DNA of 64,000 nucleotides from the NCBI RefSeq assembly GCF_041886205.1, contig NZ_CP169029.1; one strand, 5' to 3'. The notes beneath the pieces were generated by a model. The model searched no databases, was not told where the DNA came from, and worked only from the letters and a program-made list of their open reading frames with translations. Every line of letters starts with the position of its first letter. Positions within the stretch are counted from its first letter, which is position 1. Origin of the DNA: Escherichia coli (GTDB lineage Bacteria > Pseudomonadota > Gammaproteobacteria > Enterobacterales > Enterobacteriaceae). Positions 18,269 to 43,108 of this stretch are shown here, one piece after another. The position numbers and the translations under genes are program-made.

Positions 18269-18290
18269 TGATTGAGATAATGAATAGATG

Positions 18291-40916: not shown

Positions 40917-41933
40917 ATGTCCACATTACGCCTGCTCATCTCTGACTCTTACGACCCGTGGTTTAACCTGGCGGTGGAGGAGTGTATTTTTCGCCAGATG
41001 CCCGCCACGCAGCGCGTTCTGTTTCTCTGGCGCAATGCCGACACGGTAGTGATTGGTCGCGCGCAGAACCCGTGGAAAGAGTGTAATACCCGGCGGATGG
41101 AAGAAGATAACGTCCGCATGGCGCGGCGCAGTAGCGGTGGCGGCGCGGTGTTCCACGATCTCGGCAATACCTGCTTTACCTTTATGGCTGGCAAGCCGGA
41201 GTACGATAAAACCATCTCCACGTCGATTGTGCTCAATGCGCTGAACGCGCTTGGCGTCAGCGCCGAAGCGTCCGGACGTAACGATCTGGTGGTGAAAACC
41301 GTCGAAGGCGACCGCAAAGTCTCAGGCTCGGCCTATCGCGAAACCAAAGATCGTGGCTTCCACCACGGCACTTTGCTGCTCAATGCCGACCTTAGCCGCC
41401 TGGCAAACTATCTCAATCCGGATAAAAAGAAACTGGCGGCGAAAGGCATTACGTCGGTACGTTCCCGCGTGACCAACCTCACCGAGCTGTTGCCGGGGAT
41501 CACCCATGAGCAGGTTTGCGAGGCCATAACCGAGGCCTTTTTCGCTCATTATGGCGAGCGTGTAGAAGCGGAAATCATCTCCCCGGACAAAACGCCAGAC
41601 TTGCCGAACTTCGCCGAAACCTTTGCCCGCCAGAGTAGCTGGGAATGGAACTTCGGTCAGGCTCCGGCATTCTCGCATCTGCTGGATGAACGCTTTACCT
41701 GGGGCGGCGTGGAACTGCATTTCGACGTTGAAAAAGGCCATATCACCCGCGCCCAGGTGTTTACCGATAGCCTCAACCCCGCGCCGCTGGAAGCCCTCGC
41801 CGGACGACTGCAAGGCTGCCTGTACCGCGCAGATATGCTGCAACAAGAGTGCGAAGCGCTGTTGGTTGACTTCCCGGAACAGGAAAAAGAGCTACGGGAG
41901 TTGTCGACGTGGATAGCGGGGGCGGTGCGGTAA
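40917..41933 (+). CDS. lplA: Lipoate-protein ligase A
   Basis: 338-aa [64 protein letters not shown]... Confidence 0.97.
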
Positions 41934-41964
41934 CTCGCTGATTAAAATATCCAAGGAAGGAAAT

Positions 41965-42228
41965 ATGATCGATCTGGAGAACCAGGAACGGGAGATTATC
42001 AATTTAATGTTCAGCCAGGGTATATCCTGGCTAGCCGCCGTGCGTATCAGGCATAAATTATCGCTTGCTGAAGTAAGTAAAATGTTAGGTATCTCGATTA
42101 ATTCTCTAAAACAGATCGAAAAGACGGAACGGCTTAGCTCAAACATCAAAAGCAAAATGGCAGAAATTTATGGTTGTCCATCAGAGTTGCTGATATGCCC
42201 TTCCTGGATGACGGCTGAACATAAATGA
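41965..42228 (+). CDS. Small XRE-like helix-turn-helix protein occupying the position of yjjJ (possibly a remnant or replacement gene)
   Basis: 87-aa MIDLENQEREIINLMFSQGISWLAAVRIRHKLSLAEVSKMLGISINSLKQIEKTERL...; AGGAAGG RBS upstream; HTH-like LSLAEVSKMLGISINSLKQIE. Confidence 0.5.
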   Translation: MIDLENQEREIINLMFSQGISWLAAVRIRHKLSLAEVSKMLGISINSLKQIEKTERLSSNIKSKMAEIYGCPSELLICPSWMTAEHK

Positions 42229-42326
42229 ATAGATTCGTGAATAGATACTTGAATGGATTTTATTTTCTATCCATATGAAAAATAATAGTAAATCTATAAA
42301 TCAGTTGCTATTGATGAATAGATACT
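42226..42326. repeat. Three direct copies of TGAATAGAT(ACT) in the AT-rich spacer before deoD
   Basis: tgaatagat at 42226-42234, tgaatagatact at 42238-42249 and 42315-42326. Confidence 0.6.
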
Positions 42327-42356
42327 AAAAAGCCGGAGCAGTCTCCCACTCCGGCT
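42322..42356 (-). terminator. Intrinsic terminator after deoD
   Basis: gccggag-cagtctcccact-ctccggc hairpin followed by TTTTT on the minus strand, about 30 nt past the deoD stop. Confidence 0.8.
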
Positions 42357-42388
42357 TCACACGACAATCGCCTTTCAGCGAAACACAA

Positions 42389-43108
42389 TTACTCTTTATC
42401 GCCCAGCAGAACGGATTCCAGTGCGATTTTGATCATGTCGTTGAAGGTGGTCTGACGCTCAGCGGCAGTGGTCTGCTCGTGAGTGCGGATGTGGTCAGAC
42501 ACGGTACAGATGGTCAGGGCTTTCGCGCCAAATTCTGCAGCGACGCCGTAGATACCAGCCGCTTCCATTTCCACGCCGAGGATGCCGTATTTTTCCATCA
42601 CGTCGAACATTTCGCCGTCCGGAGAGTAGAACAGGTCAGCGGAGAACAGGTTACCCACGCGAGCATCAACGCCCAGTGCTTTAGCCGCGTCTACCGCGTT
42701 ACGCACCATGTCAAAGTCAGCGATAGCGGCAAAGTCATGGTCTTTAAAACGGATGCGGTTAACTTTGGAATCGGTGCAGGCACCCATACCGATAACGACG
42801 TCGCGTAGTTTTACGTGCGGCAGAACTGCGCCACAGGAACCCACGCGGATAATTTTCTTCACGCCGAAATCGGTGATCAGTTCTTTGGTGTAGATGGAGC
42901 AGGACGGGATACCCATACCGTGACCCATTACGGAAATTTTGCGGCCTTTGTAAGTACCGGTGAAGCCCAGCATACCGCGAACGTTGTTCACTTCACGGGC
43001 ATCTTCAAGGAAAGTTTCAGCAATATACTTCGCACGCAGCGGGTCGCCTGGCATCAAAACTACGTCAGCGAAATCGCCCATTTCTGCATTAATGTGTGGG
43101 GTAGCCAT
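42389..43108 (-). CDS. deoD: Purine nucleoside phosphorylase DeoD
   Basis: [57 protein letters not shown]...; track ORF 42389..43165 has a 19-codon extension. Confidence 0.97.

Follow-up and report, generated by a model that had tools for sequence, protein, structure and literature searches.

A probable autoregulatory operator of HipH at the hipH (yjjJ) promoter, orphaned in a hipH-less allele of Escherichia coli

Introduction

In the hipBA system of Escherichia coli, four operators (O1-O4) lie across the promoter of a gene for a HipA-family kinase toxin. These HipB sites are palindromes of the form TATCC-N8-GGATA and are read by an XRE-type dimer, which is a separate antitoxin. HipH (YjjJ) is a HipA-family toxin kinase without an antitoxin gene, and its control is an open question (PMC8262856). 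In the literature that we searched, we found no description of an operator for hipH, and searches with the motif strings returned only unrelated primers.

Here we analyze a 64,000-nucleotide stretch of E. coli DNA (hereafter the window) in which a cluster of short direct repeats lies upstream of the place where other strains carry hipH. Based on comparative analysis, we propose that this array is probably the autoregulatory operator of HipH at the hipH (yjjJ) promoter, left in the window as an orphan. As in hipBA, there are four sites over the promoter of a HipA-family toxin gene and an HTH reader, and negative autoregulation is expected (PMC8262856). Unlike in hipBA, the sites are 9 bp long and repeat directly, in a single orientation, every 12 bp; there is no separate antitoxin gene, and the winged helix presumed to read them is fused to the kinase. 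OmpR and PhoB boxes and plasmid iterons are also comparable, as they are head-to-tail repeats about one helical turn apart that are read by winged-helix proteins and overlap or flank a promoter. However, their period is 10-11 bp or 22 bp instead of 12 bp, and the hipH array involves neither a response-regulator receiver domain nor a replication function. The predicted fold of HipH is nearest to ArsR/SmtB, a group whose members normally bind palindromes as dimers. Lastly, the window resembles other cases of orphan cis-elements after gene loss, in which regulatory DNA is kept and the regulated coding sequence is replaced. It differs from the usual relic element in that most complete E. coli genomes (~75%) are in the hipH-less relic state and in that a newly acquired, antitoxin-like gene now lies antisense to the array.

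One part of this DNA has been seen before, as the Reg-Seq study of K-12 reported a yjjJ site at +30..+45 whose DNA is that of copy 2 and the beginning of copy 3 in the array (Ireland et al. 2020, PMC7567609). That report does not describe the repeat nature of the site, the other copies, their conservation, or a link to HipH, and the regulated gene is absent in the window. The kind of element, an operator array of an autoregulated toxin gene, is known, and this array appears to be previously undescribed. Its conservation and the covariation of its motif with the HipH recognition helix likewise appear undescribed in the literature searched, where one of its sites is known as an anonymous Reg-Seq footprint. 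For the control of HipH, our analysis supplies a conserved operator array, a predicted N-terminal winged-helix reader, and two predicted specificity-determining residues (Q26 and S30), which together make HipH autoregulation and release directly testable. The verdict on the window itself is modest: it is a hipH-less regulatory relic. Given that most complete E. coli genomes lack hipH, this state matters for generalizing persistence results from K-12 and UPEC to the species.

Results and Discussion

Four direct repeats between lplA and deoD

The window is in reverse orientation relative to K-12, with the local order ytjB (+), lplA (+, 40917-41933), an 87-aa HTH ORF (+, 41965-42228), and deoD (-, stop at 42389). 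A sequence-only reading of this DNA had reported three direct repeats of TGAATAGAT before deoD. An exact search of the window recovers all three on the plus strand (42226-42234, 42238-42246, and 42315-42323), along with a fourth copy that had been missed, TGAATGGAT at 42250-42258, which has one mismatch. The 12-mer TGAATAGATACT is present at 42238 and 42315. The context described in that reading is accurate as well: the first repeat opens with the TGA of the 87-aa ORF, and the terminator hairpin of deoD lies at about 42329-42358.

Read on the minus strand, the sense strand of hipH, the motif is ATCTATTCA. Proximal copy 3 (ATCTATTCA, 42226..42234) aligns with the K-12 copy beside the hipH ATG. 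It shares bases with the stop of the 87-aa ORF, and its end is 3 nt short of the relic hipH start codon. Proximal copy 2 (ATCTATTCA, 42238..42246) is the most conserved copy of the family, and proximal copy 1 (ATCCATTCA, one mismatch, 42250..42258) overlaps the -10 element and the expected transcription start. The three keep a strict 12-bp period (42226/42238/42250). The distal copy (ATCTATTCA, 42315..42323) is 65 bp upstream of copy 1, start to start, and is 3 nt past the T-tract of the intrinsic terminator of deoD. This terminator, a minus-strand hairpin followed by a U-tract, was recognized by RNA folding (-30.5 kcal/mol over a 75-nt stretch, z = -5) and not by a simple promoter/terminator scanner, which missed it because the loop exceeds 8 nt.

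The cluster is far from random. The exact 9-mer occurs 5 times in the window against 0.44 expected, a count reached in 0 of 100 shuffles, and from the expected rate we estimate that the chance of at least three copies within one 101-bp stretch anywhere in the window is ~4e-6. Chance, which the earlier reading had left as a possibility, is thus excluded by the shuffle test. When one mismatch is allowed, the 13 matches in the window are close to the 11.5 expected, with no enrichment outside the cluster; therefore the cluster is the only non-random feature of the 9-mer in the window. The region is also not a dispersed MITE, REP, or IS fragment, the last two of which the same reading had named as refuting its idea, as its 116 bp match a median of 1 place per E. 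coli genome and at most 2. The other two exact 9-mers in the window, at 1916-1924 (intergenic, near nhaA) and 18281-18289 (just past the thrC stop), are solitary. They had been noted before at coordinates one base off. Neither has a partner at 12 bp, and their number is compatible with chance.

The window carries the majority, hipH-less allele

The segment 41900-42420 has a full-length megablast match in 4057 of 5426 complete E. coli genomes. Most of the remaining genomes match only from 42220 on, and the annotation there is yjjJ (hipH). hipH itself is found in 1348 of the 5426 genomes, always at the deoD-lplA locus and in no more than one place per genome; the HTH allele is likewise limited to one place per genome. 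These distributions indicate that the locus has two mutually exclusive alleles and that the window carries the majority one; about 75% of complete E. coli genomes, among them O157:H7 and IAI1, are hipH-less and have the HTH ORF with an orphan array. In K-12, the hipH coding sequence spans from the lplA stop to the equivalent of window position 42222, with the ATG corresponding to the CAT at 42220-42222. Window positions 42220-42420 align with K-12 from this ATG to deoD, which places the array at the orthologous position of the operator region. To the left of the ATG, an allele-specific segment of 286 bp (41934..42219, defined by alignment) replaces the 1332-bp hipH coding sequence (K-12 locus 1172-2503) exactly, from the lplA stop to the hipH ATG. 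The relic start codon (42222-42220) opens a 13-codon ORF on the minus strand (42181..42222). Homology to K-12 starts at the ATG, and the 13 codons that follow it have no detectable similarity to hipH and mark the right-hand junction of the replacement. No hipH coding sequence is present downstream of the array in the window, which therefore holds an operator region without its gene. Genomes of this type lack hipH at any other site as well.

The sequence-only reading had also offered a recombination or excision scar. In a wider form of this account, the repeats would be a target duplication, an att remnant, or a slippage product of an event at the yjjJ locus, or would simply be coincidental. 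It is true that the repeats stand at the junction of the allele replacement and that some strains have lost one 12-bp unit. However, K-12, E. albertii, Salmonella, Citrobacter, Erwinia, and members of other genera that still have hipH intact carry the same repeats at the same positions, every copy lies on the deoD side of the replaced segment with none flanking it, and the shuffles exclude coincidence. We consider the probability of a scar or of chance to be negligible.

Two further observations concern the structure of the locus. In K-12, the stop codons of the convergent lplA and hipH genes abut (1171/1172), with zero intergenic bases, and no terminator is visible there. E. coli WB61 (L107 2449-2640) shows a third state, in which hipH is reduced to its first ~140 nt, coding for the winged helix, and these are joined to the 3' end of lplA; this truncation may be an assembly artefact, as the junction contains 'NN'.

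The adjacent 87-aa HTH ORF

The 87-aa ORF (41965..42228, plus strand) encodes an XRE-family protein (Pfam HTH_3) and begins 31 nt after lplA behind a strong ribosome-binding site (AAGGAAGGA). Its homologues are confined to Escherichia and Shigella. Remote relatives, with 35-37% identity, are the C-terminal HTH domains of ~120-aa HigA-like regulators located behind RelE/ParE-type toxin genes in a Leclercia plasmid (L022 1878-2234), a Pasteurella phage (L023 1866-2234), and an enterobacterial phage (L024 1857-2231). Judging from these relatives, the ORF appears to be a HigA-like antitoxin fragment that stands alone, with no toxin. Few substitutions underlie its pN/pS of 0.22-0.52. Two apparent homologues with 72% identity (L017 and L018) were discarded because they are bisulfite-converted reads in which essentially every C is T; entries of this kind inflate the apparent diversity of protein clusters.

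The repeats could in principle be operators of this XRE/HigA-like protein, a link implied by the earlier reading. The two are close together, the ORF ends inside the first copy, and it is under some purifying selection. However, the array is older than the ORF and is found unchanged in hipH-bearing species that do not have the ORF. The repeats are located where the ORF ends and not at its promoter, ATCTATTCA is absent from the three related HigA-like loci, and XRE dimers normally read palindromes whereas the array is made of direct repeats. We therefore regard operators of the 87-aa protein as very improbable; instead, the array belongs to the missing hipH gene on the opposite strand.

Conservation and promoter layout in hipH-bearing bacteria

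In K-12, all four copies are found at window-equivalent positions directly upstream of the hipH ATG. Aligning the spacer against strains with full-length yjjJ, as the earlier reading had suggested, shows that the four copies are kept in K-12 and that the ~55 bp between the distal and proximal copies is unalignable. E. albertii, which was the only match in a genome-contig scan with the K-12 HipH protein, has the same four copies and a third version of the spacer. By sequence comparison, this spacer (42259..42314, minus strand), which holds the promoter core, is fast-evolving: it cannot be aligned with confidence among the window, K-12, and E. albertii, and the repeats on either side of it are identical. 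The ATCTATTCA triplet with its 12-bp period and the distal copy are also present in Salmonella, Citrobacter, Kosakonia, Pluralibacter, Cedecea, Erwinia, Pantoea, a Klebsiella-like isolate, and another enterobacterium. The array ends 0-3 nt before the ATG in enterobacterial sequences and up to 5 nt before it in more distant canonical ones. Pantoea is an exception, with an array that ends 14 nt before the ATG and a distal copy further upstream.

Among 37 distinct sequences with the canonical layout, 25 have the distal copy 65 bp from copy 1, 4 have it at 64 bp, and 2 at 66 bp. The window shares this layout, with a 12-bp triplet abutting the ATG and a distal copy at 65 bp. In the same comparison, copies 2 and 3 carry 1.5-2 bits per position; copy 2 ranges from 1.5 to 2.0 bits and reaches 2.0 at 6 of its 9 positions, and copy 3 is almost invariant. 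Copy 1 is the least conserved copy across genera, and its ATCCATTCA variant is shared by Salmonella. The copies have the same orientation in every locus, their conserved core is not palindromic, and we did not find in them the dyad symmetry of a HipB-type operator (TATCC-N8-GGATA).

The exact 9-mer occurs in 21 of the 24 fetched loci and is always confined to the upstream region of hipH. A metagenome scan added 80 further HipH loci with 36-95% identity. Across 67 distinct upstream regions of HipH homologues, 12 is the best three-unit self-similarity period (among periods of 8-16) in 52, and the period-12 signal is significant against shuffles (p<=0.01) in 44, for homologues spanning 36-95% identity. 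Therefore, the triplet is a property of the hipH gene family. The flanking genes vary by taxon (a HAD hydrolase takes the place of deoD in Pantoea), which leaves hipH as the only DNA-binding gene that always accompanies the array.

A simple scan found no minus-strand sigma-70 promoter in the window, K-12, Salmonella, or Cedecea, and we located the promoter elements by an anchored multi-genus comparison instead. The 37 sequences share a -35-like cTtTAc at -29..-24 relative to copy 1 and a -10-like TATAAA or TATTAA at -5..0, with 17 bp between the two. Based on this layout, transcription would be expected to start inside copy 1. This copy thus overlaps the -10 element as well as the expected start, an overlap of site and promoter that is expected of a toxin-antitoxin operator. 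A conserved ttTCA lies within the -35/-10 spacer at -22..-18 relative to copy 1 and is kept in the window at ~42276-42279. It is similar to the 3' half of the operator core and may represent a partial fifth site, but its 26-bp offset from copy 1 is off the 12-bp phase.

Copies 2 and 3 fill a leader of ~30 nt that has no Shine-Dalgarno sequence. As these copies would be transcribed, the proximal repeats might act in the mRNA leader on translation or stability, bound by HipH or by another RNA-binding protein. We find this quite improbable. The distal copy is equally conserved and sits upstream of the -35 at a fixed 65 bp, outside the hipH transcript, and the covariation described below implies an ArsR/SmtB-type winged helix, a reader of double-stranded DNA. 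In addition, no Rfam family matches 41900-42450 at E<=1, and no RNA structure is evident there.

In a separate observation, the spacer of one enterobacterium (L007 355-1400), whose HipH is 69% identical to that of K-12, has been enlarged by ~350 bp of GC-rich palindromic units, which are repeated, together with a 163-aa ORF. We take this ORF, which has no Pfam match on record, to resemble a REP-associated tyrosine transposase. The insertion is upstream of the distal copy, and the hipH array is intact.

The motif covaries with the recognition helix of HipH

We next compared the repeats with the predicted recognition helix of the HipH protein encoded beside them. Among non-redundant loci whose helix begins with S/T-Q, 51 of 55 have at least two YATTCA and none of the 55 has at least two CGTWWM. 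In loci with an S/T-R helix, a YATTCA pair is found in 0 of 12 and at least two CGTWWM in 6 of 12, with repeats of ATCGTTTCA or ATCGTTACA instead. Fisher's test gives 3e-10 for this association, a value that is uncorrected for phylogeny and counts clades that are not independent. The covariation is one between clades, and the S/T-R group may represent a single evolutionary event. At the level of individual helices, the Q-type sequences SQATFSR, SQATLSR, SQPTLSR, and SQPTVSR pair with ATCTATTCA or TCATTCA-type cores, the R-type sequences SRPTLAR, SRATLAR, and TRPTLAR pair with ATCGTTTCA or ATCGTTACA cores, and CDRSTVTR pairs with TATCGATGCA repeats.

The structural prediction is in line with a DNA-binding role for this part of the protein. 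AlphaFold2, run on a 78-sequence alignment, gives residues 1-110 of HipH a pLDDT of 92.6, with residues 1-53 above 90. The predicted N-terminal domain has three helices (helix 3 at 26-35) and a beta wing at 39-53, that is, a winged helix, and the recognition helix begins with the covarying residues. Searching PDB sequences with HipH by phmmer returned no match. By fold, the best PDB matches are ArsR/SmtB-type repressors such as HlyU, SqrR, and BigR (rmsd 1.6-2.0 Å over ~50 residues, probability 1.0, though with an E-value of only 0.16). S25, Q26, S30, and R31, together with residues of the wing, are invariant in 11 enterobacterial HipH orthologues.

Given that the motif covaries with the recognition helix of HipH and that hipH always accompanies the array, HipH is most likely the protein that binds it. 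We propose the following mechanism for hipH-bearing bacteria. A sigma-70 promoter lies between the single distal copy and the three tandem, 12-bp-spaced copies, which begin at the -10 element and occupy the short leader as far as the start codon. The N-terminal winged helix of HipH would bind one 9-mer copy per domain, head to tail, and the bound protein would repress its own transcription, a form of type II toxin-antitoxin autoregulation in which the DNA-binding part is fused to the toxin. In the window, the 286-bp segment has taken the place of hipH, with the array and a probably weakened promoter staying behind as an orphan. This proposal is built on the homology, conservation, and architecture of the array, the motif-helix covariation, the absence of hipH, and published footprints in K-12.

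Cra was also considered as a reader. Cra sites are palindromes of the TGAATCGATTCA type; in the array, conservation is limited to TGAATAGAT and does not extend to the second half-site, and the copies are all direct repeats. We rejected Cra on these grounds.

Published evidence from K-12

Independent data on the K-12 promoter come from Reg-Seq, which mutagenized the yjjJ promoter from -115 to +45 around coordinate 4621716 and called a -35 at -18..-6 and a -10 at +9..+22 (PMC7567609). On the MG1655 sequence these calls correspond to TATACT and TAATAA, the same hexamers that our multi-genus comparison predicts, which puts RNA polymerase between the distal and proximal copies. A repressor region at -24..+18 was assigned to MarA, and a second repressor site, with its binder unassigned, was flagged at +30..+45 in a single condition, heat shock (PMC7567609). 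The second site is TCTATTCACGAATCTA, which is copy 2 plus the start of copy 3, ended by the limit of the mutagenized region. The distal copy (-48..-40) received no call (PMC7567609). Together with the deep conservation of this promoter-associated array, the published repressor footprint on the K-12 copies supports the suggestion in the sequence-only reading that the repeats are regulator binding sites.

Two reports bear on whether HipH is that regulator. [quoted passage not shown] In contrast, ChIP-exo with myc-tagged YjjJ in MG1655 gave zero binding peaks, which its authors blamed on the lack of an HTH (PMC8464067). Low expression or the tag could also explain this outcome, yet it is a direct negative result, and it is the main counter-evidence to a HipH operator. 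The restriction of the Reg-Seq site to one condition and the neighboring MarA call also count against it.

These same data bring in a regulator encoded elsewhere in the genome, for instance a c-di-GMP-responsive factor, MarA/Rob/SoxS, or a nucleoid protein. Such a trans-acting protein would control hipH from outside through the array, which could then stay useful without hipH. Besides the negative ChIP-exo (PMC8464067), the assignment of part of the promoter to MarA (PMC7567609), and the mapping of c-di-GMP control to the hipH promoter (PMC11452175), the unchanged cores of one hipH-less lineage described below would fit with an outside regulator. However, the motif changes in step with the recognition helix of HipH, the tandem array occurs once per genome, the 9-mer is neither enriched elsewhere in the window nor present elsewhere in the fetched loci, and no regulator gene is conserved beside the array. 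The MarA call at -24..+18 overlaps the RNA polymerase site and not copies 2-3. On balance, we consider control from outside unlikely and retain HipH as the favored reader, with the expectation that its binding would repress hipH transcription and that c-di-GMP would relieve this repression.

State of the orphan array

In the window, the four copies and their spacing are intact without a gene to regulate, and the array is a regulatory relic with no active system. The promoter may have fared less well. The -10-like hexamer of the relic promoter, read from the sequence as TAAAAT (42257..42262, minus strand), lies one base downstream of the family TATAAA/TATTAA position and matches the Reg-Seq -10 position in K-12. 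The family -35 position (42281..42286, minus strand, placed by the anchored comparison) reads ATTATT, a poor match to the consensus cTtTAc.

Other lineages differ in the state of the array. In three hipH-less loci (L019 at ~1470-1480, L021 at ~930-940, and L106 at 400-415) exactly one 12-bp unit has been lost, leaving two tandem copies. The number of tandem copies is therefore variable, and slippage is the presumed cause. The 87-aa ORF of L021 and L106 is annotated as frameshifted. In L019, a divergent lineage with the HTH allele, the remaining cores show 0 changes at 27 positions and the spacer is ~24% different; for comparison, the pS of lplA is ~0.25. Intact cores beside such a diverged spacer are not predicted by pure relic status. 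HTH alleles of E. marmotae carry point mutations in the cores, and two hipH-bearing E. coli variants (L026 and L027) have point changes in the distal copy. We also tried array decay as a feature of hipH-less alleles and did not keep it, as hipH-bearing variants change too and L019 keeps its remaining cores.

A broader reading would join these points with the published regulation. HipH would be an autorepressor released by a ligand, sitting on the 12-bp-phased array and on a fourth site 65 bp upstream and freed by c-di-GMP, which would explain the reported induction of hipH by c-di-GMP. In hipH-less strains, the unrepressed promoter and operator would not be inert: they could fire antisense into the HigA-like gene and lplA, or another binder could use them, and this would account for the intact cores of divergent hipH-less lineages. 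We put this combined reading forward as a doubtful possibility.

Lastly, the E. marmotae loci (L015/L016) differ from the window to very different extents along their length: the spacer has 0 differences in 55 positions, the ORF has a pS of 0.11, and lplA has a pS of 0.25. This pattern suggests that the HTH allele may have moved between E. marmotae and E. coli by recombination.
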